Part shown: positions 22,552-38,805 of the stretch, one piece after another
How the letters are laid out: every line of letters starts with the position of its first letter
Numbering within the stretch: position 1 is the stretch's first letter
Virus record (IMG/VR): IMGVR_UViG_3300025297_000001
Source: a virus
Reading direction: 5' to 3' (one strand)
DNA: 46,126 nt
The notes under the pieces: model-generated
Told to the model about the DNA's origin: nothing
Databases searched by the model: none
The model's input: the letters and a program-made list of their open reading frames with translations, nothing else
Translations under genes and position numbers: made by a program

Positions 22552-22651
22552 TGCATAACTCTCATTCACACTTTCACAAAGCAGATCCGCCGAGGTAGGC
22601 CAGCGCCCGCCGGCCATCACATGTGCGGGCACAGTAAAGAGGGCAGGGGTT

Positions 22652-23444: not shown

Positions 23445-23881
23445 AACGCCCTGAGCAAGAAATTCACAAGGCTGTTGTCGCGCATCTCAATGCGAGAGCG
23501 GAGCCGGACGTGTTCTATTTCCACCCAGCCAATGGAGGGAAGCGGACAGCATTCGAGGGGCGGCTATTCAAGGCGCTGGGCGTCGTTGCCGGCGTTCCTG
23601 ATTTGATATTTCTCAAGCGGGGCCGGATGTACGCCTTGGAGTTAAAGGCTGCCAAGGGCCGCCCCACTGCCTTGCAGAGCGAGTGCCATGAGGCAATGCG
23701 CCGTTGCGGGGCCGTTGTTGAGGTCGCCCACTCGTTGGACGAGGCGCTGGTGACCCTCGAATATTACAACATCTTAAAGCGTTCTGTTGCGTCTGCGTCA
23801 AATCCAACAGCAGGGGAAGAAAATGACAGAGACGGGTCACAACAGCAACGCTCAACTGAAGGCTATCGTGGAGCGTATTGA
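23441..23881 (+). CDS. VRR-NUC (PD-(D/E)xK) nuclease
   Basis: GVPDLIFLKRGRMYALELKAAKGRPTALQ motif. TTGA overlap start; an alternative GTG start is at 23432. Confidence 0.75.
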   Translation: MKRPEQEIHKAVVAHLNARAEPDVFYFHPANGGKRTAFEGRLFKALGVVAGVPDLIFLKRGRMYALELKAAKGRPTALQSECHEAMRRCGAVVEVAHSLDEALVTLEYYNILKRSVASASNPTAGEENDRDGSQQQRSTEGYRGAY

Positions 23882-24071
23882 GAGCGTCAACGAGCAGATC
23901 AAGGGGCTCACTGACGACCGCGGCGACATTTTTTCGGAAGCCAAGGGCAATGGCTTCGACACTAAGGCGCTACGCAAAATAATCGCGTTGCGGAAGCTTA
24001 GTTCCGAAGATCGGGCCGCTCAGGATCAGATCCTGGAAACCTACATGCACGCATTGGGGATGCTCGCTTGA
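23823..24071 (+). CDS. DUF2312 / GapR-like nucleoid-associated protein homolog
   Basis: QLKAIVERIESVNEQIKGLTDDRGDIFSEAKGNGFDTKALRKIIALRK...YMHALGM is the DUF2312 pattern. Confidence 0.85.
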   Translation: MTETGHNSNAQLKAIVERIESVNEQIKGLTDDRGDIFSEAKGNGFDTKALRKIIALRKLSSEDRAAQDQILETYMHALGMLA

Positions 24072-25066
24072 AGCCAGCCGGGAATCCCTGGATGAAGTTT
24101 TATCCCGCCGATTGGAGGGCGGACGCAATGTTGCGCCTGTGCTCCATCGGTGCGCGCGGGCTATGGGCCGAGATGATGTGCATCATGCACGCGGCGGATA
24201 ATTACGGATCGCTGCTCGTCAACGGTAAGCGCATAGACAAAAAGCAGCTCGCCGGCCTCGCTGGAATCTCCGAAAAAGAGTGCATTTTTCTTCTTTTGGA
24301 GCTGGAAACAAACGGGGTTTTTAGCAGGGACGAAGACGGAACGATCTATTCACGTCGTATGCGACGCGACCACGCTAAGGCTATCAAAGATAAGGAGAAT
24401 GGCAAGAAAGGTGGCAACCCAACGGTTAAGGGTGGGGTTAACCCCCAGGATAACCCAACGGATAACGGGGGGGATAAAGCCCAGAAGCCAGAAGCCAGAA
24501 GCCAGAGGCTAGACAAGAAAGATACGCGCGAAGACGCGCTTTCGTATGATTTCGAGTTCGCTGGTTTTTGGGAGGCTTGGCCGAACAAGGTTGGCAAGCC
24601 TGCTGCCTTAAAAGCCTTCGTTGCTGCCAGAAAGCGCGCCGGCCTCGATGCCATTGTTGAGGGGGTGTTCGCATACATCCGCGAAAAGCCGCCCGACCGG
24701 GCTTGGCTCAATCCCGCAACCTTCCTCAACCAAAACCGCTGGGAAGACCAGCCTGCACAGGTGGCAAATGGACGATCAGGAACATCGGTTCAAGAAGCTA
24801 AATCTCTCAGTCACATCGCCCGAAGACATGCGGAACAAGGAATTAGCTTTGGAGAACGCCCGCCTTCTCCGAGTGCACGCCTCAACGCGAGCGTCCCTGA
24901 TGTTCGGCTGCTATCGCAAAGCGGAGGCGAGCGACCCGGAGATCTATGCGGCGGCGACGGCATCGGTATTGAGCGAGTACCCGCCGGAGGTGATCGACTA
25001 CATCACGGACCCGAGGACGGGCCTGCCGAGCAAATCACAGTGGCTGCCCAGCGTATTCGAGGTTAG
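24068..25066 (+). CDS. DUF1376 (YdaU-like) replication-associated protein; 3' 300 nt probably read-through
   Basis: WMKFYPADWRADAMLRLCSIGARGLWAEMMC is the DUF1376 signature. The last roughly 100 aa are R/G/P/S-rich and overlap a better ORF. Confidence 0.7.
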   Translation: MKPAGNPWMKFYPADWRADAMLRLCSIGARGLWAEMMCIMHAADNYGSLLVNGKRIDKKQLAGLAGISEKECIFLLLELETNGVFSRDEDGTIYSRRMRRDHAKAIKDKENGKKGGNPTVKGGVNPQDNPTDNGGDKAQKPEARSQRLDKKDTREDALSYDFEFAGFWEAWPNKVGKPAALKAFVAARKRAGLDAIVEGVFAYIREKPPDRAWLNPATFLNQNRWEDQPAQVANGRSGTSVQEAKSLSHIARRHAEQGISFGERPPSPSARLNASVPDVRLLSQSGGERPGDLCGGDGIGIERVPAGGDRLHHGPEDGPAEQITVAAQRIRG

Positions 25067-25145
25067 GCGGGCCTGCGAGGAACACCAGGATTACCTGCGT
25101 AAGGTTGAGTTGGTGCGTGCGAAACGAGCGGCGCAGGGCCGATAA
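24768..25145 (+). CDS. hypothetical protein (125 aa)
   Basis: Internal Met of ORF 24621..25145, with a protein-like sequence from MDDQEHRFKKL onward. Confidence 0.6.
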   Translation: MDDQEHRFKKLNLSVTSPEDMRNKELALENARLLRVHASTRASLMFGCYRKAEASDPEIYAAATASVLSEYPPEVIDYITDPRTGLPSKSQWLPSVFEVRRACEEHQDYLRKVELVRAKRAAQGR

Positions 25146-25168
25146 CAGTATCACACCGGGGCATCACA

Positions 25169-25723
25169 GTGGCACGAACCAAGCGCAGGCAGCCTTACGA
25201 CCCATCCAAGGCACACGATCGACGCGCGTCAGATTCCAATCGCGGCGTAGAGAATTACCTGACACCAAAAGAGGTGGATGACCCATACGAGGCGGGGGGA
25301 AAGATCATCGTCATGCGCTCAACTCGGGACGATCCTTTGGCAGACCTCCATGCTCGCCACATGATCGACGAAGCGCAGTACCAGGCGGGGCGGGAGTTTC
25401 AGAGCGACTTTGAGACCGCCGAGAGAGGGCCGAGGGCGATTGATCCGTCAAAGGAAGCCGTGGATGGGGGCGTGATGCCGGAGCCTATCACGGAGGCCCA
25501 GAGGCGGGCTGCAAGGCAATTGGCGATTGTATATCGGGCGCTTGGTCAGGATGGCGCGGCGCTGACGCACGACGTTTTGGTTCACAGCAAGACGCGGGCG
25601 CAGATTGCGCAGTCGAGAGGGCTGACCGGGAAGAGGTGGGAGGAATACTACGGGATGCGGTTTCGTGAGTGTTTGGATTGCTTAGCGCTGGTTTATGGCT
25701 TTGCGATGGAGAAGGGGCGATGA
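25169..25723 (+). CDS. hypothetical protein, candidate late-gene regulator
   Basis: 184-aa ORF (GTG start), the last long gene apart from the HNH before the late-operon terminator. The regulatory role is a positional inference only. Confidence 0.6.
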   Translation: MARTKRRQPYDPSKAHDRRASDSNRGVENYLTPKEVDDPYEAGGKIIVMRSTRDDPLADLHARHMIDEAQYQAGREFQSDFETAERGPRAIDPSKEAVDGGVMPEPITEAQRRAARQLAIVYRALGQDGAALTHDVLVHSKTRAQIAQSRGLTGKRWEEYYGMRFRECLDCLALVYGFAMEKGR

Positions 25724-26058
25724 GCAAGAAAAATCGCCGCAACAGCATCGAAAGGCGCAGGCGCAGGGTTTATTTGCATGAGCATCAGGGGGATAAATGC
25801 TTTTGGTGCCATGAACTGGTCCCGTTCGAGGCGTCAACCGTTGATGAATTGATGCCGCGCGCTCACGGCGGATCTACTGCGTGGCGCAACATCGTTATGG
25901 CGTGTCGCACATGCAACGTGCGTCGTAGTGACACGATTGCTCCATCTTGGGCTTTTGAGGCGGCCGCAAGCCGGGAAGACGCGCGGTCCTCATACAGGAA
26001 GGATCAACGTTTCAAGCCGCCACAAGCGGCTGTACCCCCAACCGGTATAGGGTATTGA
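25720..26058 (+). CDS. HNH endonuclease (packaging-associated type)
   Basis: CFWCH...MPRAHGG...NIVMACRTCN. ATGA-coupled; located upstream of the terminase region. Confidence 0.8.
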   Translation: MSKKNRRNSIERRRRRVYLHEHQGDKCFWCHELVPFEASTVDELMPRAHGGSTAWRNIVMACRTCNVRRSDTIAPSWAFEAAASREDARSSYRKDQRFKPPQAAVPPTGIGY

Positions 26059-26130
26059 CACCGGGAGTAACTAGGTGTACCAAAGCCACCATCCGAGTGA
26101 TTTGCCATCAGCACGTAGATCACAAGATAG

Positions 26131-26162
26131 CCCGCGCCGGGAAACTGGTCGCGGGTTTTTCT
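26131..26162 (+). terminator. strong rho-independent terminator
   Basis: CCCGCGCCGG-GAAA-CTGGTCGCGGG stem followed by TTTTT. Confidence 0.7.
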
Positions 26163-26356
26163 ATTTCCGAGTTCGGGCACCCTCAAGCAAACCGATAGAG
26201 CGCATCCCCCTGCTGACGCGGCCGACTTACGTGCCGAGGCTCTCGACATGCTGAGTGGTGCCCGAAACCCTAATCCCGTGGCGTAAAAAGCTATACGCGG
26301 CCGTTGCGCGCGCCTCGGCCATTGGATGCGGGAGTCGCGCCCCGTCGGGAAAGCGA

Positions 26357-26560
26357 ATGTCCGCAACCGTGATCTACGCTGATTTCGCCACCAAGACCTG
26401 GCATCGGCCTGAGACTTTGGAAGAGATGGCGTTAGCGATGGTAGAGCAGTTCAACCGTATGGCGGAATCTGGAACTGAAGTGGTTTGCGAGATGGTGCCT
26501 TACCATGGTGCCGGGATAGATGGGATTCCGTATCAAGCGCCAGAGAATGACGCTGGTTGA
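26357..26560 (+). CDS. hypothetical protein (67 aa)
   Basis: Internal Met of ORF 26255..26560; first ORF after the terminator. Confidence 0.45.
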   Translation: MSATVIYADFATKTWHRPETLEEMALAMVEQFNRMAESGTEVVCEMVPYHGAGIDGIPYQAPENDAG

Positions 26561-26820
26561 GTTTGGGGACAATGACCAGCGGAGCAAGTTGATCCGCCAC
26601 GACTGGTGATCAGACAGTGGGTTTTGTGGTACAAAAAGTTCTGACTGCGGCGTGGAAGGACACGCACGACGGTAGGGTACTGGTACTGAGGCAAAAGGAG
26701 CCGCCCGCCTCACTCTCGCAAGAGATGCCGAAAGGGGCCGCAAGGGTACAAGTCAGCTCACAAAACGAGCCGCCCGTGAGCAGCCGGTATCAAGCCCGGC
26801 CAGTCAGGCAGGAGAATGTG

Positions 26821-26973
26821 ATGAACCAAGTAGAGATCGAGACCAAGGCCGTGATCGCTCAATACGCCAATCTATTGGCCATTGTTGGCGTTCCGGGGGC
26901 CCGGCAGCCGTCAAAGGCGACCATGGCAGTTTATGTTGATCGGCTGAAGGAATTGGTTGAGCGGCTTCCCTAG
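26821..26973 (+). CDS. small hypothetical protein (50 aa)
   Basis: AGGAGAATGTG RBS then ATG 26821. Confidence 0.45.
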   Translation: MNQVEIETKAVIAQYANLLAIVGVPGARQPSKATMAVYVDRLKELVERLP

Positions 26974-27256
26974 ACCAATGACGCTGGTTAGTGACAATGA
27001 CCTTGCATGGCTTGCAGCTAACCTTGCAGTGGCCCTCAACGACATCAGGTGTCAAGAACGCATGAGCATCAACGCGATCAGGCAGGCGCTAAGACATCTT
27101 CCGGGCGGGAAAGATGCGACTATGCGCTACGGGCTGGGAGGAAGAACCCAGATCTTCCAAATCGGGGACGAAGAGGTCGAGGTAGGTCCAGAGGCCACGG
27201 CATCGGACATTGAAGCGGCGCTTGAGCGTAAAAAAAAAATTCAGAGCATCCCATAG
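26957..27256 (+). CDS. hypothetical protein ending at an A10 tract
   Basis: TTG 26957 with a GAAGGA RBS; an alternative ATG is at 26978. The C-terminus ERKKKIQSIP is encoded across the A10 run. Confidence 0.6.
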   Translation: MSGFPRPMTLVSDNDLAWLAANLAVALNDIRCQERMSINAIRQALRHLPGGKDATMRYGLGGRTQIFQIGDEEVEVGPEATASDIEAALERKKKIQSIP

Positions 27257-27279
27257 CGGTCATTGAAGAGATATCAGGC

Positions 27280-27504
27280 ATGAGCGTTTCAGGATACGAG
27301 CCAGGATCGATCAGGGCGCGTCTGGATGCGTTAAAAAAGCAAGGCAAGGATCGGCGGGATGCTGCCATTGCCAAGCTGGACGAGGCCGGCAAGAAGCATG
27401 AGGCCGTATCTGAAGAGATCGAGCGCGTTGCGAGCCAGATCGAGAAAGAGGCTGACGACGCGATTGCTGAGTTCAGCGAGTTTACGAATGGGGGTCCACA
27501 ATGA
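27280..27504 (+). CDS. coiled-coil small protein (possibly also made as a -1 fusion with 26957..27256)
   Basis: 74-aa charged helical ORF. Its frame is open back to the A10 tract. Confidence 0.6.
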   Translation: MSVSGYEPGSIRARLDALKKQGKDRRDAAIAKLDEAGKKHEAVSEEIERVASQIEKEADDAIAEFSEFTNGGPQ

Positions 27505-27701
27505 GCGCAGCTGACAGGGCGGCGTTCATGCAGTTCAAGGATGGCGATGTTGTTTCATTGCTGTCTGGTGGGCCCTTAATGACGGTCGAGATGACCCGCG
27601 AAGATGGCTTTATTCCGGCTATATGGTTCGTTGAGGGCGTGGTTCACAGGGATTGCTTTGATCCCGCCATGCTCCAAAAGTGGGTGAAGTTCGAGCCATG
27701 A
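27501..27701 (+). CDS. DUF2158 (YodC-like) small protein
   Basis: FKDGDVVSLLSGGPLMTV motif. Confidence 0.7.
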   Translation: MSAADRAAFMQFKDGDVVSLLSGGPLMTVEMTREDGFIPAIWFVEGVVHRDCFDPAMLQKWVKFEP

Positions 27702-27970
27702 ACATAGCAGACGACAGTGAATCCATCCGCAAGCGCATGGAAGAAATAGAGCAGGAGCGGGTAAAGCAGATCATGGGCGTGCCGATTGAGGAGCCAAAGG
27801 CTGTGGAAGCGCCGAAGGATGTTGACTGGGCGAGTGCGTATGGATCGCCATCAGCCTATCAAGATTTGTACCGCCATCTGATGTCAATGGAGGCGGATAG
27901 CTGGCACCTTGCTTCGATACCCAAATTCATTGCCCTGACCGAAGAAAAGCTAAAGCTTACAAAAACGTAA
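27698..27970 (+). CDS. hypothetical protein
   Basis: ATGA-coupled; 90 aa. Confidence 0.6.
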   Translation: MNIADDSESIRKRMEEIEQERVKQIMGVPIEEPKAVEAPKDVDWASAYGSPSAYQDLYRHLMSMEADSWHLASIPKFIALTEEKLKLTKT

Positions 27971-27982
27971 CCTGAATGCAAC

Positions 27983-28249
27983 ATGCCGTTTGAAGCCGGA
28001 AACCAAGAGGGCAAAAAGGCCAATCACAAGAAGCCCCGCATCATCACTCAGAAGCTCATTGCAAGACTTCAGGATGCCGATGGGGCTGCGCTGGATCGCA
28101 TGTTGGCTGCAATCATTGCCAAGGCCCAGGAAGGCGACGTGCCGGCGTTCAGAGAGATCATGGACCGCGTGGAAGGCAAGGCGCCGCAGCCCGTCGAGAA
28201 CGGGGAAGAGGGCGACTTCAAGATCAGTGTTACGTGGCTGAAGTCGTAA
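27983..28249 (+). CDS. putative terminase small subunit
   Basis: 88 aa with a basic N-terminus (MPFEAGNQEGKKANHKKPR). It overlaps the TerL start. Assignment is mainly positional. Confidence 0.5.
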   Translation: MPFEAGNQEGKKANHKKPRIITQKLIARLQDADGAALDRMLAAIIAKAQEGDVPAFREIMDRVEGKAPQPVENGEEGDFKISVTWLKS

Positions 28250-29532
28250 TACCCTATTGCCCGCGGCCGCAGTTCATACCCTACCACGAGCGCACCGAGC
28301 GCTTTGCCAAGATCGTAGCCCATCGGCGCTTTGGTAAAACAGTCGGCTGCATCAACGACAAGATCAAGGCGGCGCTGAGCAACCCGAGGCAATATCCGCC
28401 TCCCAGGTATGCCTATGTTGCCCCGACCTACACGCAGGCCAAGGACATAGCCTGGTCTTACCTGAAGCACTACAGCGCGCCCATACCGGGCATTAAGACA
28501 TCGGAATCGGAGCTTTGGGTTGAATATCCTAATAGCGCTCGAATCCGGCTCTACGGGGCCGACAATTACGATCGAATGCGCGGGCTCTACCATGATGGCG
28601 TCACTATCGACGAGCCTGCACAAATGGACCCGAGAGCGTGGCCTGAGGTTATCAGACCTACGCTTTCAGATTATAGCGGATGGGGAACGTTCATTGGTAC
28701 TCCAGCCGGTCGAGATTGGTTCTACAAAATCGACCTCGCCGAAGATGGAACGCCCGCATCAGACTTCTTCCGCCTCACGCTCAAGGCCAGCGAAACCGGG
28801 ATCATCAAGCCCGAGGAGCTGGAAAGTCTCAAGTCGGGCCTGACACAAGACCAATACGAGCGCGAGTTCGAGTGTTCGTTCGACGCCGCCATTGTCGGCG
28901 CCTACTTTGCCCAGATGATGGCCAAGGCTCGAGCGCAGGGCAGGATTGGCCGGGTATCTGCGGATCCGTTATTGCCACTGCGAGCGTTCCACGACATCGG
29001 CGGTTCAGGTGGACTGGCCGACGCTTACACCATCTGGATTGTCCAGTGGGTGCAGCAGGAGATCAGGGTTCTCGACTATTACGAGAGCGTTGGCCAGGTG
29101 CTTGCCTACCACGTCAATTGGATGCGTGAGCGTGGCTACGAGAAGGCCATCAATTATCTGCCGCACGATGGCGCGCATCACGACAAGATCACAGGCAAGC
29201 GATACGAGGACCATTGGCGGGATGCCGGGTTCCAGGTCGAACCTTCAGTGCAGAATCAAGGCAAGGGCGCGGCAATGATCCGCGTTGAGGCCCTGCGCAG
29301 GCATGGTGACAAGATTTGGTGGAACGAGGCGACCACGGAAGCCGGGCGCAACGCCATCGTTCACTATCAGGAAAAGCGAGACGAAGAACGCAATGTTGGA
29401 CTTGGGCCTTTGCACAATTGGGCGAGCCATGCGGCGGATTCGTTGGGCATGATGGCCTGCTGCTATGTCGAGCCGTCCGGCTATGCGAAGTTCAACCGGC
29501 CGCTGATCTACGCTAACGCAGGCGTCGCCTGA
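28234..29532 (+). CDS. terL: terminase large subunit
   Basis: Walker A-like VAHRRFGKT. 432 aa, immediately upstream of the portal. Confidence 0.9.
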   Translation: MAEVVIPYCPRPQFIPYHERTERFAKIVAHRRFGKTVGCINDKIKAALSNPRQYPPPRYAYVAPTYTQAKDIAWSYLKHYSAPIPGIKTSESELWVEYPNSARIRLYGADNYDRMRGLYHDGVTIDEPAQMDPRAWPEVIRPTLSDYSGWGTFIGTPAGRDWFYKIDLAEDGTPASDFFRLTLKASETGIIKPEELESLKSGLTQDQYEREFECSFDAAIVGAYFAQMMAKARAQGRIGRVSADPLLPLRAFHDIGGSGGLADAYTIWIVQWVQQEIRVLDYYESVGQVLAYHVNWMRERGYEKAINYLPHDGAHHDKITGKRYEDHWRDAGFQVEPSVQNQGKGAAMIRVEALRRHGDKIWWNEATTEAGRNAIVHYQEKRDEERNVGLGPLHNWASHAADSLGMMACCYVEPSGYAKFNRPLIYANAGVA

Positions 29533-29672
29533 TGTACGTATACCTCGCGGAGAAGAATGACCTGCCATACCCGATTATTTTACCCTATGTCATCAGCTTG
29601 GGCATCCTGATCATGCATAGCGCGGCATTGATGCCGGGCCGCGAGTGGCGGCTAGAGACGCTGGGCCTCTAA
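29532..29672 (+). CDS. possible 46-aa protein between terminase and portal
   Basis: TGATG and TAATG overlaps with both neighbours. Hydrophobic core PYVISLGILIMHSAAL. Confidence 0.3.
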   Translation: MYVYLAEKNDLPYPIILPYVISLGILIMHSAALMPGREWRLETLGL

Positions 29673-30244
29673 TGCCCAAGATGGACACGATCTCGCTCAA
29701 GGCCCTTCTTCAGGGGCAGAAGGCTGCGGCGCTGTCGGCGAACAATGCCGCTGAGCTGTCTGCCGAGCGCGAAAAAGCCATGGATTACTACCTCGGTCGG
29801 ATGACCGATCTGCCGGCTCAGGATGGCCGCTCGAGCGCTGTTTCGTCTGACGTGGCGGATACCATTGAAGGCCTGATGCCCTCGCTGATGGACATCTTTG
29901 CGGGCTCTGATGAGGTTGTGCGGTTTGACCCGGTCGGACCTGAGGACGAAGAGGCTGCACAGCAAGAGACCGACTACGTGAACCACGTGTTCATGCAGCA
30001 AAACCCCGGCTTCATGACGCTTTATTCGTTCGTGAAGGACGCGCTTCTGCAAAAGGTCGGCATCGTCAAGGTGTGGTGGGAAGAGAGCGACCAGGAGGAG
30101 CGGGAGACGTATTACGGCCTGACCGACGTTCAGTACATGGCGATGCTGCAGGCGGTCGAGATGTCTGACGGGGCCATGAAGATCGTCGAGCACACGCAGA
30201 ACGGCGAAGAGGCTGAAGAGCCCGCCGAAGAGGCCGCCTACTGA
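29672..30244 (+). CDS. portal protein, N-terminal fragment
   Basis: EREKAMDYYLGRM...GRSSAVSSDVADTIEGLMPSLMDIF...LLQKVGIVKVWW is a typical portal N-terminus. It ends in an acidic loop at TGA 30242-30244. Confidence 0.8.
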   Translation: MPKMDTISLKALLQGQKAAALSANNAAELSAEREKAMDYYLGRMTDLPAQDGRSSAVSSDVADTIEGLMPSLMDIFAGSDEVVRFDPVGPEDEEAAQQETDYVNHVFMQQNPGFMTLYSFVKDALLQKVGIVKVWWEESDQEERETYYGLTDVQYMAMLQAVEMSDGAMKIVEHTQNGEEAEEPAEEAAY

Positions 30245-31980
30245 TGGACATGACCCCGGCTGAACAACTGGCGGCTATGCCCAAGCCGCCGCCAGAGCCG
30301 ATCACGCACGACATCACGATTGTCACCACGCGCAAGCTGGCATCGGCCAAGGTGCTAGGCGTTCCCCCGGAAGAGTTCGGGATCGAGCGCAACGCTCGTG
30401 ACATCAAGACCTGCAATTACTGCTACCATGAGGTCGTCACCAAGACCGAAACCCAGCTCATTGACGAGGGTTTCGACGCAGAACAAATTAGGGCGCTGAA
30501 CGACTATACCGGCACCAGCGACAACGAGACGATCAGTCGGGATTCGGTTCAGGAGCATACCGGCGCCGGCAACATCAACGCCGCTGCCCGCCTGGTCAAG
30601 ATTACCGAGCACTACGTTAGGATGGACTACGAAGGTAAGGGCCGTGCCTGTCTTTACATGGTCATTACGGGTGGCGATCAGGGCGAGATCCTGAAGAAGG
30701 ACGGCAAGGTATGCATCGAGCCGATCGATGTCATTCCATTCGCCTGCACGACGCCGGTCCCGATTACCCATCGCTTCTTCGGCCGGTCGATCGCGGACCT
30801 CGTTGTAGATATTCAGAAGATCAAGACTTCGCTGCTGCGGAGCGGCTTGGACAGCAAATACCTGTCCAGCGGGGCGGATGTCGAGATTGCCGAAAGCCAT
30901 GTGGGCGCCAGCACGATTGACGACCTGTTGGGGCCAAAGCGGCCGGGCAGGATCATCCGCACGAAGCAGCCTGGCGGCCTGAACTACCAAGTTGTGCCGG
31001 ACACCTCGGAAGCCTCCTTCGCGGCCATGGGGTACATGGATTCGCTGTTGGAAATGCGGACTGGCGTCAGCCGGCAGGGGCAGGGCGTCGATGCCAATGC
31101 CCTGCAGAACCAGTCAGCGACGGCTGTGGCGCAGGTGTTCAGCGCGTCCCAAGCCCGCATGAAGCTGATTGCGCGCATCATGGCCGAGGGCGTGCGCGAT
31201 ATCTTCTCGCTGCTGCACCACACCATCCGCTCGCACGGTCAGGAACAACAGACGGTTCGGCTGCGGAACAAATGGGTTGAGGTTGATCCGCGGAACTGGA
31301 AAACCCGCAACGACATGACGATCAACGTCGGCTTGGGGAACGGCGGCAAGGGCGAGCAGTTTGCGCAGATCATGGCGCTGGCCAACGTCCAGAAGGAAAT
31401 GATTGCCGGCGGCAAGACCAATCTGGTTGGCGATCAGGAGCTATACAATACCGGCTCCGAAATCGCCCGGATCATGGGCCACAAGAACGCGAACAAGTTC
31501 TTCAATGATCCCAGCGAGAAGAACCCGGACGGGTCACCAAAATATCCGCCGCCACCGCCGCCAACTCCTGAGTCCGTCCAGGTTGCACAGCTAAAGGCGC
31601 AGAGCGATCAGCAGAAGCTTGGTGTTCAGGCCCAGCTTGACCAGCAGGCGGATGAGCGTAAGGCCCAGATCGAGGCCACACAGGCGCAGGCCGATATTGC
31701 GACACAGGATCGCAAGACGCAGGCTGAGATGATCCAGTCTGAGCGGGAATTCGAGCTGAAGCGCGAACTGGCCATTCTTGAGTTCCAGTTACAGGAGCGA
31801 ATTGCCGAGCGCGAAGAGGCCCGCAAGGAGCGGGAACATCAGCAGCAGATGGCGCAGAGCGCAGAGCAGCACCGCCAGCAGATGGAAGCTGGCGTATTCA
31901 AGGTTGCGCAGGGTGCCGAGGCGCATGATCAGAAGATGGAGCAGATGAAGAGCGCTCCGAAGCCCAAGGGTGGTAAGTGA
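30244..31980 (+). CDS. portal protein, main body with C-terminal coiled-coil barrel
   Basis: VPPEEFGIERNARDI..., PITHRFFGRSIADL, RTGVSRQGQG, then a long Gln/Glu-rich helix. It is in the -1 frame relative to the N-terminal fragment. Confidence 0.9.
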   Translation: MDMTPAEQLAAMPKPPPEPITHDITIVTTRKLASAKVLGVPPEEFGIERNARDIKTCNYCYHEVVTKTETQLIDEGFDAEQIRALNDYTGTSDNETISRDSVQEHTGAGNINAAARLVKITEHYVRMDYEGKGRACLYMVITGGDQGEILKKDGKVCIEPIDVIPFACTTPVPITHRFFGRSIADLVVDIQKIKTSLLRSGLDSKYLSSGADVEIAESHVGASTIDDLLGPKRPGRIIRTKQPGGLNYQVVPDTSEASFAAMGYMDSLLEMRTGVSRQGQGVDANALQNQSATAVAQVFSASQARMKLIARIMAEGVRDIFSLLHHTIRSHGQEQQTVRLRNKWVEVDPRNWKTRNDMTINVGLGNGGKGEQFAQIMALANVQKEMIAGGKTNLVGDQELYNTGSEIARIMGHKNANKFFNDPSEKNPDGSPKYPPPPPPTPESVQVAQLKAQSDQQKLGVQAQLDQQADERKAQIEATQAQADIATQDRKTQAEMIQSEREFELKRELAILEFQLQERIAEREEARKEREHQQQMAQSAEQHRQQMEAGVFKVAQGAEAHDQKMEQMKSAPKPKGGK

Positions 31981-32768
31981 CGACAGCCTTTGTCCTAGCT
32001 TCTTCCGACCACGGCCCGTTAATCGTCAATCGTTTCGACTATAACCATACGCACACTGGCGATTTCTACGGCGTCGGCGCCCAGATCATGGAGAACGGCT
32101 GCTATGATCCACGCGACGTGCAAAGCCTCAAAGACCTGCTTATGTGCCGGCGAAATCACTTCGGCGACGGCGTTGTTGCTCTCGATGGTGGCGCCAATAT
32201 TGGCGTGCATTCTGTTGAATGGGCTCGCCTTATGCGTGGGTGGGGCTCTGTCCTCGCAGTAGAGGCGCAGGAGAGAGTTTTCTACGCATTGGCAGGTAAT
32301 CTGGCCCTTCAGAATTGCTCTAATGCACGAGCCTTATGGGCAGCGCTCGCGGACGTACCGGGCGAACTGTCCATACCCGAACCTGACTACACCCAACAGG
32401 GCAGTTTCGGGTCTTTCGAATTAAAGCCGCGTGTCGGAACCGAGTTCATCGGTCAGCCGATCGATTACGCTAAGCCGACCTCGACTGTGAAACAGATCAT
32501 GATTGATGGTCTGGGCCTTGAACGCATGGATTTGATGAAGCTGGACCTCGAGGGGATGGAAGCCGAGGCGCTGGACGGCGCGCGGGAGACCATCGAGCGT
32601 TGCAAGCCCATCCTGTTCGTGGAGACGATAAAATCAGACAGGGACGCGATATCGGCCGCGCTGCGGAATGAAGGTTATGTGGTGCTCAACAACGGGATGA
32701 ACATCCTGGCCATCCACAAGACCGACAAGACGCTGGAGAACGTCAAGACCGTCAAGGAGGCGGCGTGA
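31977..32768 (+). CDS. FkbM-family SAM-dependent methyltransferase
   Basis: VALDGGANIGVHS and MKLDLEGMEAEALDG motifs. GTGA-coupled to the portal stop. Confidence 0.85.
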   Translation: MTTAFVLASSDHGPLIVNRFDYNHTHTGDFYGVGAQIMENGCYDPRDVQSLKDLLMCRRNHFGDGVVALDGGANIGVHSVEWARLMRGWGSVLAVEAQERVFYALAGNLALQNCSNARALWAALADVPGELSIPEPDYTQQGSFGSFELKPRVGTEFIGQPIDYAKPTSTVKQIMIDGLGLERMDLMKLDLEGMEAEALDGARETIERCKPILFVETIKSDRDAISAALRNEGYVVLNNGMNILAIHKTDKTLENVKTVKEAA

Positions 32769-34096
32769 ACGTCGAGAAATACCGCGCAACAGCTAACAAG
32801 CTGATCCGCAATCCCGACGATCCGATTGCCTTAGTAGACCAGTTTGCACTGATCTCCGAAAAAAAGGACGGCGCGAGACACTTCCTGCCGCTTGCCAAGC
32901 GGGCCTATGAGCTGGCGCCGGACGAAATATCGGCGATGTTCAATTATGGATCGGCGCTTCAAAGGGCGGGTGAGTTCAAGCAGGCCAAGGATATCTACCT
33001 GCGCTGCCTGACCATCGCGCCGCAGGATTGGCGGGCTAAGGTGCTGCATCATGTGGGTGTAGCCTACCGTGGCATGGGTGAGAACGAGAAGGCCGCAGAA
33101 TACTATTTGCGCTCCTATGAGATCGAGCCCAACCCGAACATCCTGAAGGACAGGGCGCTCGCGATCCTGGCGCAGGGAAAGCTCAACGAGGGGCTCAGGG
33201 AATTCGAGGCGCGTCGGGAAGCGGCCGTCTGGAAGTTGCACGAGAGCGGCGGCCACCTGATCACACAAGCCAAGCTGCCGGCGGATGTCGTGCATTGGCA
33301 GGGTGAAGACCTGACGGGCAAAACGATCGTTGTCTACCACGAAGAGGGCTCGGGCGATTTCATCCAGTTCTGTCGATATATACCGAAACTGCGAGAGCTT
33401 GGGCCGGCCAGTGTCCTCTTATGCGGCCCAGTTCAGAACCTGCTTGAACTCGTGTCTGACAACATCGCAGTTGATGGGATTGTACCTCTCGGGGGACCAT
33501 TCGAAAGCGACTTTGTCATTGGCTCAATGTCACTGCCATGGCGGGTTGGGTGTGAAATTCACGGAGTGGACGGGAAAAGGTATTTTTCCGCAGAGCCTGC
33601 TAACATACCGCGACGGGGCAGGTTGAATGTCGGTCTGGTTTGGCGAGGAAATCCAGCATACGGGCAAGACGTTCATCGCTCCATGGCGTTCTCGGAATTT
33701 TGCCCCCTCTTCGACATACCTGGCGCGGCATTCTATTCACTACAGGCCGGACCAGCCAGTCTCGAAGTCACAAATCTCGGCTTTGACGGATTCGTTGCCA
33801 ATCTCGAACCTCTCGCGAGCACATGGCGCGATACCGCGAGATTGATCCAGGCTTTGGACGTAGTTGTGACTGTGGATACCGCAGTTGCGCATCTTGCCGG
33901 CGCGCTCGGGAAGCCAGTCTTCATTCTCATTACAAATGCCTCGGATTGGCGCTGGGACCGGAACAGCCGGAAGACGATCTGGTACGACTCGATGACGGTC
34001 ATCCGGCAGAAAAAGCAGGATGACTGGGCGCCATGCATCGCGACCGTCAGACAATACCTAAAGGACATGCTCAGTGAACGCCGACAAGCTGCTTGA
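32765..34096 (+). CDS. TPR-repeat protein fused to a GT9 (heptosyltransferase)-like glycosyltransferase domain
   Basis: N-terminal TPR-like helices. C-terminal GKTIVVYHEEGSGDFIQFCRY...VGLVWRGNP...VVTVDTAVAHLAGALGKPVFILI...DWRW pattern. Confidence 0.8.
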   Translation: MNVEKYRATANKLIRNPDDPIALVDQFALISEKKDGARHFLPLAKRAYELAPDEISAMFNYGSALQRAGEFKQAKDIYLRCLTIAPQDWRAKVLHHVGVAYRGMGENEKAAEYYLRSYEIEPNPNILKDRALAILAQGKLNEGLREFEARREAAVWKLHESGGHLITQAKLPADVVHWQGEDLTGKTIVVYHEEGSGDFIQFCRYIPKLRELGPASVLLCGPVQNLLELVSDNIAVDGIVPLGGPFESDFVIGSMSLPWRVGCEIHGVDGKRYFSAEPANIPRRGRLNVGLVWRGNPAYGQDVHRSMAFSEFCPLFDIPGAAFYSLQAGPASLEVTNLGFDGFVANLEPLASTWRDTARLIQALDVVVTVDTAVAHLAGALGKPVFILITNASDWRWDRNSRKTIWYDSMTVIRQKKQDDWAPCIATVRQYLKDMLSERRQAA

Positions 34097-34364
34097 ACAG
34101 TCGGTCCGCGCCGACCGAGCGCGGGACATCCTCGAGAGCGAAGTCTTCAACGCGGCACTGGCGACCATCGAGGCGGACTATATCGCGCTTTGGAAAAATA
34201 CGCCGGTTCGGGACGCTGCAGCGCGAGAGCACATATGGGCTCAGTTAAAAAACCTCGGCTTGCTGAAGGATCACCTTCAGATCGTCATGACCGGCGGCAA
34301 TCTGGCGAAGAAGCAACTGGACGAGATGCTGAACCGGCCAAAGCCCGACTGGTCCCAGGTATAA
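34074..34364 (+). CDS. hypothetical head-module protein
   Basis: 96-aa ORF (GTG start) between the glycosyltransferase and the scaffold gene. Confidence 0.6.
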   Translation: MNADKLLEQSVRADRARDILESEVFNAALATIEADYIALWKNTPVRDAAAREHIWAQLKNLGLLKDHLQIVMTGGNLAKKQLDEMLNRPKPDWSQV

Positions 34365-34509
34365 CTCTGCTGCTCCCGCCGCAGTTCAATTTCGACGTTA
34401 ATCACCAAATCAGCACGGCGCTGAAGCTTCACGGCCTTACGAGGTCTGAAGAGATCGAGCCGCGCGCCGGTTGTCGGCGCTTCAGGCTCACCTAGCACAA
34501 AGGAACTTT

Positions 34510-35601
34510 ATGTCTGACGAAGCACTCGCCCCCGCGAGTGACAGCGCACCTGTGCCTGTCGCTAGCGTCCCGGCGCCCGAGCCCACCACATCAGAACTTA
34601 CAGTTTCAGAAGCGGCGCGGCTTCTAGGCCAGCGACGACGACAGGTACAAGCTCCCGTTGAGCAGCCCAAGGCTGATCCGGTCGAGCCCGAATTGGCGCA
34701 AGCCAACAGCGACCCGGAAACGGACCCCGCTGAAGTAACCACGGAGGTCGAACCGGCAGAAGAACTGCCGCCCATCGATCCGCCGAGGTCTTGGACGCAG
34801 GCAGAGAAGGAACGTTTTCAATCCTTGCCTCGTGAGACGCAGGAATATCTGCACACTCGCGAACAGGAACGGGAGCGCGAATTTCGCCGAGGTCAGAATG
34901 ATGTCGCTGAAAAGCTCAAGGCCGCACAGGCCAAGGAGCAGGCGGCGGAACAGGCAAGGCAACAGTACGAGACCAAGCTTTCGGGTGCCGTCAAGGTCAT
35001 CCAGGACGCGCTTCAGGCCGAATTTGGAGACATCCAGTCGGTTGCTGATGTGCGGAAGCTGCAGGCCGAAGATCCTTTCAGGTTCCAGGCTTGGCAGGTT
35101 CGCCAGATGGAATTGCAGGCAGCTCAAGCGGAATCTCACGCCTCTGAAGTACGCAAGACGCAGGAACGGCAGGATAAGCGGAATGCTTACGAAGCCGAGC
35201 AGAACAAGTTGTTGATCGATCTGGTCCCTGAAATGGCGGACCCGCAGAAGGCCAATGACTTACGCGCCCGCGCCGTTGCGATGCTCACGGACGATCTGGG
35301 ACTTAAGAACGAGACGCTCTCCCGATGGATCGCTGACGATACTGGACATGAAATCCTGTCCAACGCCGGCATTCAGAAGCTCATTGCGGACGGTCTGAAG
35401 TACCGAGACATCCAGAAGGCTCCCAAGGCTGTCGCCACCAAGCCCATTCCTCCGGTTCAGCGACCAGGCGCTGCAAGGACCGTCAACAACGGTTCAGCGC
35501 AGCAAATCCAAGCCCTCCAGAAACAACTTGAAAACGCGTCCGGCAACAAAGCCGCCGAGATAGGCGCTCAACTCCTGAGACTCAGGAGAGCCGGCCGATA
35601 G
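34510..35601 (+). CDS. scaffolding protein
   Basis: 363 aa, highly charged Glu/Gln/Ala/Arg-rich coiled-coil, directly upstream of the capsid gene. Confidence 0.75.
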   Translation: MSDEALAPASDSAPVPVASVPAPEPTTSELTVSEAARLLGQRRRQVQAPVEQPKADPVEPELAQANSDPETDPAEVTTEVEPAEELPPIDPPRSWTQAEKERFQSLPRETQEYLHTREQEREREFRRGQNDVAEKLKAAQAKEQAAEQARQQYETKLSGAVKVIQDALQAEFGDIQSVADVRKLQAEDPFRFQAWQVRQMELQAAQAESHASEVRKTQERQDKRNAYEAEQNKLLIDLVPEMADPQKANDLRARAVAMLTDDLGLKNETLSRWIADDTGHEILSNAGIQKLIADGLKYRDIQKAPKAVATKPIPPVQRPGAARTVNNGSAQQIQALQKQLENASGNKAAEIGAQLLRLRRAGR

Positions 35602-35613: not shown

Positions 35614-36579
35614 ATGACTCTCGCTACCTCTGCATTCACTACGTTTTCCGCGATCGGCAACCGGGAAGACCTCTCGGACGAAATCAGCCGCATCGACCCC
35701 ACTGAAACCCCGTTCTATTCGGGCATCGAGCGCTCCAAGGCATCGGCCACCAATCATGAGTGGCAGACCCAGGCGCTGGCGGCTGCGTCCACCTCGAACG
35801 CTCAGCTCGAAGGTGACGACGGCTACGCGGCGGACGCCACCACGGCGACCGTTCGTCTCGGCAACATCTGCCAAATCTCGCGCAAGACCCCGCGCGTTAC
35901 CGGCACCCAGCAGGCGGTTGACCACGCCGGCCGCGGCTCGGAAATGGACTATCAGGTCATGCTCAAGGGCATGGAGCTGAAGCGCGATATCGAAGCCATC
36001 CTGACCGGTGCAAACCAGGCCAAGGTTACGGGCAACTCCTCGACCGCGCCGAAGCTCGCTGACGCTCTGTCGTGGATCAAGACCAACACGGACAAGGGCG
36101 GCGGCACTGGCGCTGACCCGACCGCGGCGGATGGCACTTCGCTTCGCGTTGACTCTGCGACGCAGCGGGCGTTCACGGAAAACCAGCTCAAGAACGTTCT
36201 CAAGAAGTGCTACGATCAGGGTGGTCGTCCGACCACGATCCTGATGGGCTCGTTCAACAAGCAGGCGTTCTCGATGTTCACGGGCCGGTCCACCCCGACC
36301 CAGGACGCCGCCGGCAAGAAGATCACGGCCGCAGTCGATGTCTACGTGTCCGACTTCGGCACCCTGAAGGCGATCCCCGACCTGTTCATGCGGACCAAGG
36401 ATGTCCTCGTGCTCCAGATGGACAAGTGGGCCTATGCCCCGCTGCCGGGCCGTAACTTCCTGTCCTACGATCTGGCGAAGACGGGCGACTCCGACGCACG
36501 CACGGTCCTCTCTCAGTACACCCTGGAATCCAGGAACGAGAAGGCCAGCGGCGGCGTGTTCGACCTGACCAGCTCGTAA
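35614..36579 (+). CDS. major capsid protein (HK97 fold, SU10/DUF5309-like)
   Basis: SAIGNREDLSDEISRIDPTETPF...HEWQTQAL N-terminal signature. 321 aa, followed by a terminator. Confidence 0.9.
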   Translation: MTLATSAFTTFSAIGNREDLSDEISRIDPTETPFYSGIERSKASATNHEWQTQALAAASTSNAQLEGDDGYAADATTATVRLGNICQISRKTPRVTGTQQAVDHAGRGSEMDYQVMLKGMELKRDIEAILTGANQAKVTGNSSTAPKLADALSWIKTNTDKGGGTGADPTAADGTSLRVDSATQRAFTENQLKNVLKKCYDQGGRPTTILMGSFNKQAFSMFTGRSTPTQDAAGKKITAAVDVYVSDFGTLKAIPDLFMRTKDVLVLQMDKWAYAPLPGRNFLSYDLAKTGDSDARTVLSQYTLESRNEKASGGVFDLTSS

Positions 36580-36599: not shown

Positions 36600-36628
36600 G
36601 GGCGGCCTTCGGGTCGCCCCTCTCTTTT
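36600..36628 (+). terminator. rho-independent terminator after the capsid gene
   Basis: GGGCGGCC-TTCG-GGTCGCCC stem followed by CTCTCTTTT. Confidence 0.7.
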
Positions 36629-36639: not shown

Positions 36640-37047
36640 ATGGCTCTTCCCATTTCTCATCCGCTTCAGGAGATGGTCCTGGACGGCACGGTCGCCAGCG
36701 CCGCGAATGCGGTTCTGACGCTCCGCGCGCCGTTCAAGGGGCGCATCCTCGAAGTCGGGACTATGATCGGCTCCGCTACCGTGTCCAACGACGCAACGGT
36801 GACGACCACCATCGCCGGCACGGCAGTAACGGGCGGCTCGTTCGTTATCACGCAGTCCGGTTCGGCTGCGGGCGATCTCGATGCGGCGTCAGTCTCTGGC
36901 GTGGTCGCGAACGGCGTTACCGCCAACTCGACCATTACCGGCGCGAACACCTTCAACGAGGGCGATTCAATCCGACTGGCGATTACCGGCTCCGGCGCTA
37001 CCGGTGGCGGTATCCTTTACTACTACGCTGTCGTGGCTCGTGGATAA
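36640..37047 (+). CDS. virion structural protein (possible head decoration protein)
   Basis: GGAGG RBS. 135 aa, Thr/Ser/Gly/Val-rich and beta-type. Bracketed by two terminators. Confidence 0.7.
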   Translation: MALPISHPLQEMVLDGTVASAANAVLTLRAPFKGRILEVGTMIGSATVSNDATVTTTIAGTAVTGGSFVITQSGSAAGDLDAASVSGVVANGVTANSTITGANTFNEGDSIRLAITGSGATGGGILYYYAVVARG

Positions 37048-37094: not shown

Positions 37095-37391
37095 ATGTCA
37101 CGAGGCTTCGCCAACGTCGATAGTGCGCGGCTGGGCACGCAGAATAACGTGGTCATCACGACCTCGACTGTCTCTGTAGCCTCATCCGCGTTCGGCTCTC
37201 AAACCTATCAGATCCGTGTCGCAACCACGACCGCCTGCAATATCAAGATCGGTGACGGCACCCCGACCGCCACCACGAGCGATGCTTTAATGCCGGCGAA
37301 CTGGGTGGATTATTTCATCGTTACCCCCGGCCAGAAAATCGCAGCCATCGGCGCCGTTACAACCGTATCGGTCACGGAAATCACTCAGTGA
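37095..37391 (+). CDS. small structural protein
   Basis: GGAG RBS; 98 aa, Thr/Ser-rich beta-type sequence. Confidence 0.7.
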   Translation: MSRGFANVDSARLGTQNNVVITTSTVSVASSAFGSQTYQIRVATTTACNIKIGDGTPTATTSDALMPANWVDYFIVTPGQKIAAIGAVTTVSVTEITQ

Positions 37392-37717
37392 GTGAGGTCG
37401 CGCGCAAACTCTACGTTGATGAGGGTGCGAAAACTCTCACCTTCGTCAACGTACAGGATGTCGAGCCGATCCTTGATCTGAACAAGGAGCAGCGCTCTCA
37501 GGCTCAAACATCCGATTGGGGGCGCCACTATGCGCGCATTCCAAACACGATCGCTCTTCAGTGGTTCTATGAGGAGCATGCCAAGGGCAACACTGGCCTG
37601 CAGATGTATAGCGATGAGTGGGACGGTCTGGTTTGGAAGAAGCTCCATGACCCTGACTGGGCCTATCTCCGGACGGACAAGAAGCCGACCATCATCACTG
37701 GCGTCACGGGTCTCTGA
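37388..37717 (+). CDS. hypothetical virion-module protein
   Basis: 109-aa ORF coupled on both sides (GTGA and TGATG). Confidence 0.7.
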   Translation: MSEVARKLYVDEGAKTLTFVNVQDVEPILDLNKEQRSQAQTSDWGRHYARIPNTIALQWFYEEHAKGNTGLQMYSDEWDGLVWKKLHDPDWAYLRTDKKPTIITGVTGL

Positions 37718-38358
37718 TGGCGATCACAAACTATACCGAGTTGCAGGCTGCGGTCGCTAATTGGCTGGCGCGTGACGACCTAAGCGGCCGCATTCCCGAG
37801 TTCATCACGCTTTGCGAAGCCAAGCTGAACCGGGAGCTTTACGCTCGGCAGATGGAAACGCGGTCTACGACGACCGTGGACATCGCGAGTGATGAGCCCG
37901 AGTTCATCACGCTGCCGGACGACTTCCAGTCCATGCGGCGTATGCGGCTCTCGAGCGTCAGCGGCAAGCCCCATCTCTTGTACAAGAGCGGCGGGCAGAT
38001 GGACGAGTATAGAACGTCGATCGGCGACATTGCTGGCAGGCCGCTTTATTTCAGCATCATCGCCGATGAACTGGAATTGGTCCCGACGCCAGACGACGCC
38101 TACATCATCGAGATGGTCTACCGGACCAATATCCCGGCGCTGGCTGACAACACGACCAATTGGCTCCTGACGCTCGCTCCCGATGTCTACCTTTACGGCG
38201 CTCTCCTGGAAGCCGCGCCCTACACCAAGGAAGATGAGCGGATTCAAACCTGGCTGACGGGTTTTGCCTCCGCCATTGACGGGCTGAACCGTCTTTCCCT
38301 CGCATCAACATTCAATGCTGGGCCGATGACCATGCAGGTCAGCGGTTCAACTCCATAG
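37717..38358 (+). CDS. putative head-tail adaptor / head completion protein
   Basis: MAITNYTELQAAVANWLARDDL...IPEFITLCEAKLNREL is an N-terminus typical of podovirus adaptor-like proteins, from memory. Confidence 0.65.
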   Translation: MAITNYTELQAAVANWLARDDLSGRIPEFITLCEAKLNRELYARQMETRSTTTVDIASDEPEFITLPDDFQSMRRMRLSSVSGKPHLLYKSGGQMDEYRTSIGDIAGRPLYFSIIADELELVPTPDDAYIIEMVYRTNIPALADNTTNWLLTLAPDVYLYGALLEAAPYTKEDERIQTWLTGFASAIDGLNRLSLASTFNAGPMTMQVSGSTP

Positions 38359-38367: not shown

Positions 38368-38805
38368 TTGGCGACATACACCAAATATGAGAACTTTGTT
38401 CAGGTTCTCGCCAACAAGGAAGTCGATGCCTTTGGCGCTACCGACACCTGGAAAGCGGCCATTCACACGGACGCGCCCGTTGTTGCCACGGACACGACGA
38501 TCGCGGATCTGACGCAGATCTCCGGCGCGAACGGCTATACGACCGGCGGATCGAGCATTACCTTCACGTCAAGCCGCTCGGGCGGCACGGTGACGGCGAC
38601 CGCTACCGACGTGGTTTGGACGGCTTCTGGCGGTAACCTCGGGTCTTCTACGACCGGCCGTTACATCAGCTACTACGATGACACGCCGACCACGCCGACC
38701 GCCGATCCCTTGGCGGCTTCGTGGGATTACGGCTCGACCTTCACGGTTGCGGATACTGAGACGCTGACGCTCGACTTCGGCGGCTCGATCTGGACGCTTG
38801 CGTGA
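38368..38805 (+). CDS. hypothetical structural protein
   Basis: AGGAG RBS and TTG start; 145 aa, Thr-rich. Confidence 0.7.
   Translation: MATYTKYENFVQVLANKEVDAFGATDTWKAAIHTDAPVVATDTTIADLTQISGANGYTTGGSSITFTSSRSGGTVTATATDVVWTASGGNLGSSTTGRYISYYDDTPTTPTADPLAASWDYGSTFTVADTETLTLDFGGSIWTLA

Follow-up and report, generated by a model that had tools for sequence, protein, structure and literature searches.

What are a methyltransferase and a glycosyltransferase doing between the portal and the scaffold of a temperate phage? The question is raised by IMG/VR virus record IMGVR_UViG_3300025297_000001, a stretch of 46,126 nucleotides (the window), in which an FkbM-family methyltransferase (MT) is encoded directly before a protein that joins tetratricopeptide repeats (TPR) to a glycosyltransferase domain resembling family GT9 (GT). 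The initial annotation proposed that this MT-GT pair, or cassette, glycosylates and methylates the virion, or alternatively that it converts a host surface glycan late in infection. In our analysis virion modification stays the leading hypothesis, as the pair is retained beside the scaffold and capsid genes throughout a clade and as GT-FkbM fusions exist in cells, although no acceptor was singled out. The reading we favour, and to which we would give close to an even chance, is that of a protein glycosyltransferase which acts late in the cytoplasm under the guidance of its TPR arm, the FkbM enzyme then methylating what it makes; virion proteins are the favoured acceptors.

By its profile matches the MT is an unambiguous member of the FkbM family, with scores well above the curated cutoffs, as had been proposed. 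It matches PF05050 (Methyltransf_21) with E=6e-15 and 56.1 bits (cutoff 22.7) over model positions 1-172 of 173 (residues 70-235), TIGR01444 with E=1.5e-20 and 74.1 bits (cutoff 37.7), and the methyltransferase family phrog_8156 with E=2e-18. The two motifs that had been quoted for it are in place, DGGANIGVHS at residues 70-79 and KLDLEGMEAEAL at residues 188-199, and the loop formed by the former probably binds S-adenosylmethionine (SAM). Homologues number 2665, are up to 89% identical and are found in Bradyrhizobium and Tardiphaga chromosomes as well as on phage-size contigs; the sole relative in the PDB is an FkbM protein without characterisation (2py6), matched weakly (E=0.2). FkbM-family enzymes include sugar O-methyltransferases, for example NoeI.

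The GT is matched by several TPR families of Pfam (E down to 4e-13; TPR_12, TPR_8, TPR_2 and TPR_1 at residues 43-124), and in a search of PDB sequences its solenoid matches the repeats of the O-GlcNAc transferase OGT (E=3e-13). Profile searches, which the initial annotation had suggested, thus recovered a full FkbM domain in the MT and the repeats in the GT, whereas the match of the latter to PF01075 (Glyco_transf_9) lies above the threshold (27 bits, cutoff 22) and is short, covering residues 357-398 only and model positions 177-218 of 247. NCBIfam heptosyltransferase equivalogs score the GT far under their cutoff (25 against 185 bits). The motifs quoted earlier were found at residues 195-205 (GSGDFIQFCRY), 371-385 (DTAVAHLAGALGKPV) and 394-397 (DWRW). 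In 31 homologues of 55-81% identity E193, E194, G195, G197, D198 and F199 are invariant, as are the DWRW motif and residues D371, T372, H376, L377, G379, A380 and G382 of the donor motif. The loop with the first six of these residues follows a strand at residues 187-191 in the AlphaFold2 (AF2) model, and its Asp198 may be equivalent to Asp13 of the heptosyltransferase WaaC. The D371-T372...H376-L377 stretch aligns with WaaC 'VDTGLSHLTAAL' / VDTGLSHL both in a profile search of PDB sequences, where this short motif was the only GT9-type match, and in hhalign (83% probability, C-lobe only, for a WaaC query corroborated in just two segments).

The full-length AF2 model, built on the same 31 homologues (pLDDT 90, pTM 0.88), consists of a helical solenoid, two Rossmann-like lobes and a C-terminal helix. 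Its best Foldseek matches in the PDB are SPINDLY (SPY), OGT and XcOGT (E=7e-11 to 1e-8), and the top 29 are all SPY, OGT or XcOGT-type O-GlcNAc transferases. When the catalytic domain was modelled in isolation (pLDDT 86), the leading matches were GT9 proteins with E=1.5e-7 to 3e-4, namely 3tov (Veillonella GT9, E=1.5e-7), WaaF (1psw), WaaC (2gt1 and 6dfe, TMq 0.58) and the protein heptosyltransferase TibC (4rap and 4rb4, TMq 0.55), and no OGT was among the top 50. A GT41 identity of the catalytic domain was ruled out by this result together with the lack of a Glyco_transf_41 match in Pfam and the confinement of the OGT and SPY sequence matches in the PDB to the TPR part. The architecture as a whole is thus predicted to be OGT-like, with a catalytic domain that is not GT41 and whose modelled fold is a GT-B of GT9 type. 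The combination of TPR and GT9-like domain named in the initial annotation is borne out by Pfam, AF2 and Foldseek, and the glycosyltransferase fold on which that annotation had made its own proposal depend is there. The conserved TPR solenoid, one third of the length of the protein, is presumed to be the arm that recognises the acceptor. The structural relatives of the GT in the viral database are all uncharacterised.

Both genes are tied closely to their neighbours. The two GTGA overlaps reported before are present, one between the portal gene and the MT (stop TGA at 31978-31980, start GTG at 31977) and one between the MT and the GT (stop at 32766-32768, start GTG at 32765). An AAGGAGG Shine-Dalgarno sequence lies 6 nt upstream of the GT start, and the GT overlaps the following 96-aa gene (p96) by 23 nt. 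A consensus sequence scan found no sigma-70-like promoter on the + strand from 27500 to 37500, and the first strong terminator-like hairpin 3' of the cassette comes after the capsid gene, with another after the gene of a 135-aa protein (p135). Because there is no promoter-like site, because hairpins occur only after the capsid gene and because stops and starts overlap, the sequence assigns both genes to the late transcript of the head module. No hydrophobic segment is present in either protein, and neither a membrane segment nor a signal peptide was seen in their sequences.

This context bears on the surface-glycan alternative, in which the GT, in the lysogen or late in infection, would add a sugar to the lipopolysaccharide (LPS) core, the O-antigen or the exopolysaccharide (EPS), with O-methylation of that sugar by the FkbM enzyme, so that receptors change and superinfection is blocked. 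GT9 enzymes are mostly LPS heptosyltransferases, NoeI shows that the FkbM family can act on sugars, and serotype-converting temperate phages are well known. In addition, rhizobial prophages have been reported with FkbM-like and LPS-glycosyltransferase auxiliary genes (PMC5537653). However, a conserved protein-binding arm takes up a third of the GT, no membrane association is predicted, and the coupling inside the late head operon, with no promoter or terminator of its own, makes expression in a lysogen unlikely. The pair was also never near the integrase or an attachment end in the loci examined, and its cellular homologues are stand-alone genes outside polysaccharide loci. Conversion of a host surface glycan is for these reasons the less likely of the two initial readings, and we consider it very unlikely.

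The distribution of the pair speaks for a stable role in the head module. The database holds 4914 relatives of the GT; the best 120 of these are full-length or nearly so (52-100% identity), and while many sit on 40-46 kb contigs, some belong to chromosomes of Bradyrhizobium. Cultured strains of this genus carry prophages with the cassette, among them Bradyrhizobium sp. USDA 3686 (P0028), B. frederickii CNPSo 3426 (L006) and a B. diazoefficiens strain (P0137). We compared 34 GT-bearing loci, consisting of the window, 27 IMG/VR records and six loci from protein look-ups or a capsid-based genome scan. The order MT, GT, (p96), scaffold, capsid is kept in all 34, with the MT upstream wherever the contig reaches, and in one locus (L004) the pair stays beside scaffold and capsid although no portal gene lies upstream. 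The capsid-based scan, with one genome per species, gave 80 related prophages, just two of which have the pair, and in the capsid tree all GT-bearing loci form one clade. Within this clade the divergence of MT and GT does not outpace that of portal or adaptor, as seen between the window and locus L082 (major capsid protein 65%, portal 49%, adaptor 36%, MT 56% and GT 61% identity). The single capsid clade and the portal- and adaptor-like divergence suggest that the pair is a vertically inherited core component of the head module of this clade, and judged by these sequences it behaves as a core gene set and not as a transient moron. Our literature search found no paper describing an MT-GT pair in phages of Bradyrhizobium or other rhizobia.

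Outside phages the GT domain is widespread. A profile search with it returned 38,638 clusters at 50% identity (17,289 at E<1e-30), named in the sources just 'tetratricopeptide repeat protein', and the top matches are giant proteins of 1300-3100 aa with three to six TPR-GT modules (P0241-P0389). The GT9-like domain thus appears, from sequence, to define a family of bacterial [TPR-GT9-like]n proteins that is very large and so far uncharacterised. One member of 2305 aa (P0296) has three matched GT stretches and ends in an FkbM domain to which the profile of the phage MT aligns with E=6e-108, and P0381, P0401, P0402 and P0403 likewise join TPR, GT9-like domain and FkbM. The fusion, together with the linkage of MT and GT in the phages, argues for a chemical pathway of two steps. 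The fusion gene P0401 and the Bradyrhizobium chromosomal gene P0490 stand alone in unrelated neighbourhoods, from which no function carries over to the phage pair, and no LPS, EPS, flagellar, flagellin or nonulosonic-acid biosynthesis genes were found around them, which fits a self-contained enzyme directed at proteins and not a glycosyltransferase of a polysaccharide cluster. In the window we found no other glycosyltransferase, nucleotide-sugar enzyme, heptose-pathway gene or base-hypermodification enzyme; the lack of a nucleotide-sugar enzyme means that the donor must come from host pools. Two further roles were rejected. DNA glycosylation or hypermodification does not agree with a window that has no hydroxymethylase or base-modification pathway, its DNA-modification genes being limited to an MT-A70 methylase, a C5 DNA methylase and a nucleoside deoxyribosyltransferase-like gene, nor with the protein-binding arm of the GT. 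As for a defence or anti-defence system, PADLOC returned no match.

From the gene structure, the domain and fold identity, the conserved catalytic-type motifs, the operon embedding, the clade-wide synteny and the GT-MT fusion, all shown by the analysis, we infer the enzymatic activity, the protein acceptor, the virion target, the sugar as methyl acceptor and the nature of the donor. MT and GT would form a self-contained, late-expressed protein-modification unit, in which the TPR solenoid captures a folded or nascent acceptor protein and the GT-B domain transfers a sugar from the host nucleotide-sugar pool, probably onto Ser/Thr; by analogy with GT9 enzymes the donor might be ADP-heptose. The MT would then methylate the added sugar or, less likely, the same protein. 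As its transcription and translation are tied to those of portal, scaffold and capsid, the unit would be made just when virion proteins accumulate in the cytoplasm, and for this reason virion proteins are its most likely acceptors, whether small Thr/Ser-rich proteins of the head module, the capsid or fibres. The outcome would be a glycosylated, methyl-capped particle surface.

Which virion protein would be modified? The initial annotation pointed to several Ser/Thr-rich proteins downstream, and the richness is there (serine plus threonine fractions in Table 1), but the specificity is not, as relatives without the cassette also have homologues. In p135 the phages with the cassette have a subfamily in common that is marked by an insert of 5-14 aa, yet this protein too has homologues where the cassette is missing. 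As a cassette-specific protein p135 was rejected: the pattern based on identity dissolved on alignment into one family in both groups, with the cassette-less locus L020 intermediate. Homologues of a 98-aa protein (p98) have a mean serine plus threonine fraction of 0.24 in GT-bearing loci against 0.19 in the others, and GT-bearing phages have a clade-specific 'ATTSTxxAS' strand in it. In four loci of one sub-clade the sole p98 homologue lies directly upstream of the pair, having moved from its post-capsid to a post-portal place (L082:4976-5236, L102:4331-4600, L106:5311-5571 and L111:4346-4606). We regard p98 as the best acceptor lead, and as a lead only.

Several observations weigh against a virion-modifying enzyme pair. 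Phylogenetic profiling and comparison of serine plus threonine content singled out no acceptor protein; this content is equal with and without the cassette in the capsid protein and p135, and the differences in p98 and in a 145-aa protein (p145) are confounded by the monophyly of the GT-bearing phages. The GT9 sequence match spans just ~42 residues, and the equivalence of the catalytic base is indirect. The closest isolated phage, Bradyrhizobium phage ppBeUSDA76-2 (capsid 62% identical), falls outside the GT-bearing clade and lacks the cassette. It is produced spontaneously, and its source strain releases podophages (PMC10127595), so a particle of this kind needs no MT-GT pair. Finally, the premise of the initial annotation that only morphogenesis genes normally lie between portal and scaffold does not hold for this lineage, since sister prophages have variable cargo there, and the cargo of this slot in them acts on cells and not on virions.

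Three positions are hypervariable in the sister clades: between the portal pieces, from portal to p96 (the slot of the MT-GT pair) and from p96 to capsid. Elsewhere the MT-GT slot holds proteins with a C-terminal WHH nuclease toxin followed by SUKH-1 immunity proteins, and once an ART-PolyVal ADP-ribosyltransferase; homologues of the small virion genes p145 and p98 also move into it in some lineages. Such cargo weakens the argument from position and brings up a rival reading, that of an effector encoded beside the portal and directed at cells. The pair might modify host proteins at a late stage of infection; alternatively, packaged close to the portal, it might enter the cell with the DNA as an effector of take-over, anti-defence or superinfection exclusion, in the manner of MuF toxins and of packaged ADP-ribosyltransferases. 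Its place directly 3' of the portal gene is the classic one of MuF-type head-packaged toxins (PMC5576092), the TPR-GT layout is shared by enzymes acting on cellular proteins (OGT, SPY, FlmG; PMC7591256), and the stand-alone homologues imply that cellular acceptors for the family must exist. However, Pfam shows no MuF domain or recognisable capsid-targeting domain in MT or GT, there is no immunity-like partner, PADLOC was negative, the pair in L004 stays with scaffold and capsid where no portal gene precedes it, and the stable vertical inheritance differs from the turnover typical of conflict cargo. Taken together, we find a host-protein target unlikely.

A slot that tolerates unrelated cargo could also hold something else, for example accessory cargo whose target is a small molecule or the cargo itself, or else a non-catalytic assembly chaperone with a TPR-GT fold. 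TPR proteins are often chaperone adaptors, and the giant [TPR-GT]n relatives are uncharacterised. In contrast, the invariant nucleotide-sugar-binding motif and GD loop in more than 30 diverged homologues argue for catalysis, and the tight linkage and fusion of MT and GT for two-step chemistry. Such another role appears unlikely.

Modification of virion proteins by the pair could be stated for the whole group, and we put this forward tentatively, as somewhat short of an even chance: a clade of temperate Bradyrhizobium-type podophages would O-glycosylate and methyl-cap its own virion proteins by means of a TPR-GT9 and FkbM pair in the core of the head module. If true, no virion glycosylation system would have been described before it in a phage of Gram-negative bacteria, and particle glycosylation encoded by phages would extend from actinobacteriophages to phages of soil alphaproteobacteria, by OGT-like enzyme logic, which would matter in rhizobial ecology for the stability of virions, their adsorption and their host range. 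The phage GT appears to be the minimal, single-module form of a domain that thousands of giant TPR proteins of bacteria contain in several copies. It would thus give a first functional handle on the [TPR-GT9-like]n family, and a tractable model for the acceptors and donors of the giant proteins. In case the target is a host protein, a protein glycosyltransferase encoded in the head operon would represent a phage effector of a new type.

The features of the late region are collected in Table 1; their order is terminase, two-ORF portal (ORF, open reading frame), MT, GT, p96, scaffold, capsid, small Thr/Ser-rich proteins, SU10 adaptor and tail genes.

Table 1. Late-region features of the window (positions in the 46,126-nt stretch; S+T, fraction of serine plus threonine; aa, amino acids)
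Feature	Position	Strand	Basis or remark
Terminase large subunit	28234..29532		
Portal protein, N-terminal piece, 199 aa, own ORF	29645..30244	+	Pfam SU10_portal model positions 2-169, E=1e-57
Portal protein, C-terminal piece, 578 aa	30244..31980	+	SU10_portal positions 165-590, E=3e-118; phrog_1216 portal
FkbM-family SAM-dependent methyltransferase (MT), 263 aa, soluble	31977..32768	+	PF05050, TIGR01444, phrog_8156
MT motif DGGANIGVHS, glycine-rich loop at start of FkbM domain	32184..32213	+	
TPR plus GT9-like GT-B glycosyltransferase (GT), 443 aa, predicted soluble	32765..34096	+	Pfam TPR families and Glyco_transf_9; AF2
GT TPR/helical solenoid, residues 3-160	32771..33244	+	AF2, ten helices
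GT-B catalytic domain, residues 187-442 (predicted)	33323..34090	+	Two Rossmann-like lobes and C-terminal helix (domain-only AF2, Foldseek)
Invariant EEGxGDF loop after first beta-strand, candidate catalytic-base Asp198	33341..33361	+	Alignment of 31 homologues
GT9 donor-binding motif DTAVAHLAGALGKPV	33875..33919	+	Invariant residues; alignment with WaaC and PF01075
96-aa conserved head-module gene (p96)	34074..34364	+	phrog_8161; most relatives have p96, cassette or not
Head scaffolding protein	34471..35601	+	phrog_3927, E=1e-12; always directly 3' of cassette
Major capsid protein (MCP), SU10 type	35614..36579	+	PF17236, E=8e-91; phrog_1328
Terminator-like GC hairpin 3' of capsid gene	36600..36619	+	8-bp stem, 7 GC pairs, then T-run
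135-aa Ser/Thr/Gly-rich post-capsid protein (p135), possible decoration protein, candidate acceptor	36640..37047	+	S+T 0.22
98-aa Thr-rich protein (p98), weak lead as acceptor	37095..37391	+	S+T 0.27
SU10 adaptor	37717..38358		
145-aa Thr-rich virion-module protein (p145), candidate acceptor	38368..38805	+	S+T 0.30; phrog_644

The window has an exact terminal overlap of 127 bp (1..127 = 46000..46126), which shows that the assembly, circularly closed or terminally redundant, covers the entire temperate phage genome of ~46.0 kb. Integrase, Rad52, DnaA-C, two DNA methylases and lysozyme are among its genes, and the phage is a temperate one of Bradyrhizobium type. The two methylase genes (MT-A70 and C5) lie in the early region (1..28000), together with genes for a nucleoside 2-deoxyribosyltransferase-like/DUF4406 protein, a GapR-like DNA-binding protein and several HNH endonucleases.

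The portal of the window is split into two ORFs joined by a TGATG overlap (TGA stop, ATG start). Among 73 related loci the portal is fused in 32, split with adjacent halves in 25, and divided by 0.46-4.2 kb of unrelated genes in 16; split-portal loci include L012, L021, L032, L037, L038 and L046. A portal that is truly split, or that depends on recoding, and whose junction serves as a slot for cargo seems out of the ordinary. In the sister Bradyrhizobium prophages cargo loci were located at L017:4032-5066 and 5078-5536, L023:5653-6648 and L020:6429-7772, and the WHH toxins with SUKH-1/SMI1 immunity genes in the interval from portal to p96 belong to a cluster of 16 related ORFs. This cargo is of polymorphic-toxin type and sits in the head operon of SU10-like podophages.

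Some cassettes are expanded. In L005 a second, unrelated class-I SAM methyltransferase gene (Methyltransf_23, E=1e-27) follows the GT directly (9341-10057), and a gene for a 218-aa protein of no assigned role precedes the FkbM gene. The extra genes of L004, L005 and L082 are mutually dissimilar, save one weak match of 18 residues between two small ORFs, and those that were scanned gave no informative Pfam match apart from Methyltransf_23. Additionally, the capsid gene of L107 is matched in two pieces ~940 bp apart (6815-6904 for residues 1-30 and 7846-8715 for residues 31-321), which suggests an intron, an intein or another insertion.

Among known systems, the best full-length structural matches of the GT are the GT41 enzymes human OGT, Xanthomonas XcOGT and Arabidopsis SPY, which have the same N-terminal TPR superhelix and C-terminal GT-B domain, are soluble and cytoplasmic and glycosylate proteins on Ser/Thr. 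Unlike them, the phage GT has a catalytic domain outside GT41 and is much shorter, with just 443 aa, and its gene belongs to the head operon of a phage. The folds closest to its catalytic domain are those of the GT9 enzymes WaaC/WaaF and TibC/Aah (TMq 0.55-0.58), and it shares with GT9 heptosyltransferases the donor-binding motif D-T-x3-H-L-x-x-A-x-G; TibC is a GT9-type enzyme that O-glycosylates proteins in the cytoplasm. The phage GT differs from these in its added TPR arm, and the likeness in sequence is limited to ~40-80 residues of the C-lobe.

The precedents named in the initial annotation find support in the literature. FlmG is a TPR plus GT-B O-glycosyltransferase of flagellin in Caulobacter and Brevundimonas (PMC7591256), in which the TPR binds the acceptor and the GT-B domain sets the donor (PMC7591256; bioRxiv 10.1101/2022.03.25.485807). 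Like the phage GT it is alphaproteobacterial, soluble and built of two domains, and with the likeness drawn from architecture it may be the best mechanistic model for the division of labour between the two domains of the GT. In contrast to the phage GT, FlmG has 596 aa, is encoded with flagellar and pseudaminic or legionaminic acid genes and uses nonulosonic acids; no flagellin or nonulosonic-acid genes lie beside the pair in the window. In mycobacteriophages, glycosyltransferases encoded by the phage (Che8 gp110, Corndog gp38, Myrna) decorate its own capsid and tail proteins, according to PMC12363180, which cites Freeman 2023. These enzymes are unrelated to the phage GT and their hosts are actinobacterial; a tblastn search with the GT against 50,697 phage records gave four weak cyanophage or marine matches and no mycobacteriophage. 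To our knowledge, neither a TPR-GT9 architecture nor a coupled FkbM partner occurs in mycobacteriophages.

A viral pairing of the two chemistries exists in the chlorovirus PBCV-1, whose capsid glycan enzymes, for example A064R with its rhamnosyltransferase and methyltransferase domains, build a methylated capsid glycan. PBCV-1 resembles the pair in that cytoplasmic glycosyltransferase and sugar O-methyltransferase activities are encoded by the virus. It differs as a giant virus of eukaryotes whose enzymes have other folds and come from other families and whose glycan is N-linked to Vp54, and no homology is implied. With the MuF polymorphic toxins of temperate phages the pair has only the site directly after the portal in common (PMC5576092), as neither MT nor GT has a MuF, toxin or immunity domain by Pfam. 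Serotype-conversion cassettes of the gtr/oac type differ from the pair, which has no hydrophobic segments and no flanking promoter- or terminator-like sites and is coupled to late genes. Thus, the closest known systems would function alike yet belong to other families, FlmG being likened by its architecture alone, and the pair may extend the known concept of phage-encoded virion glycosylation with a different type of enzyme.

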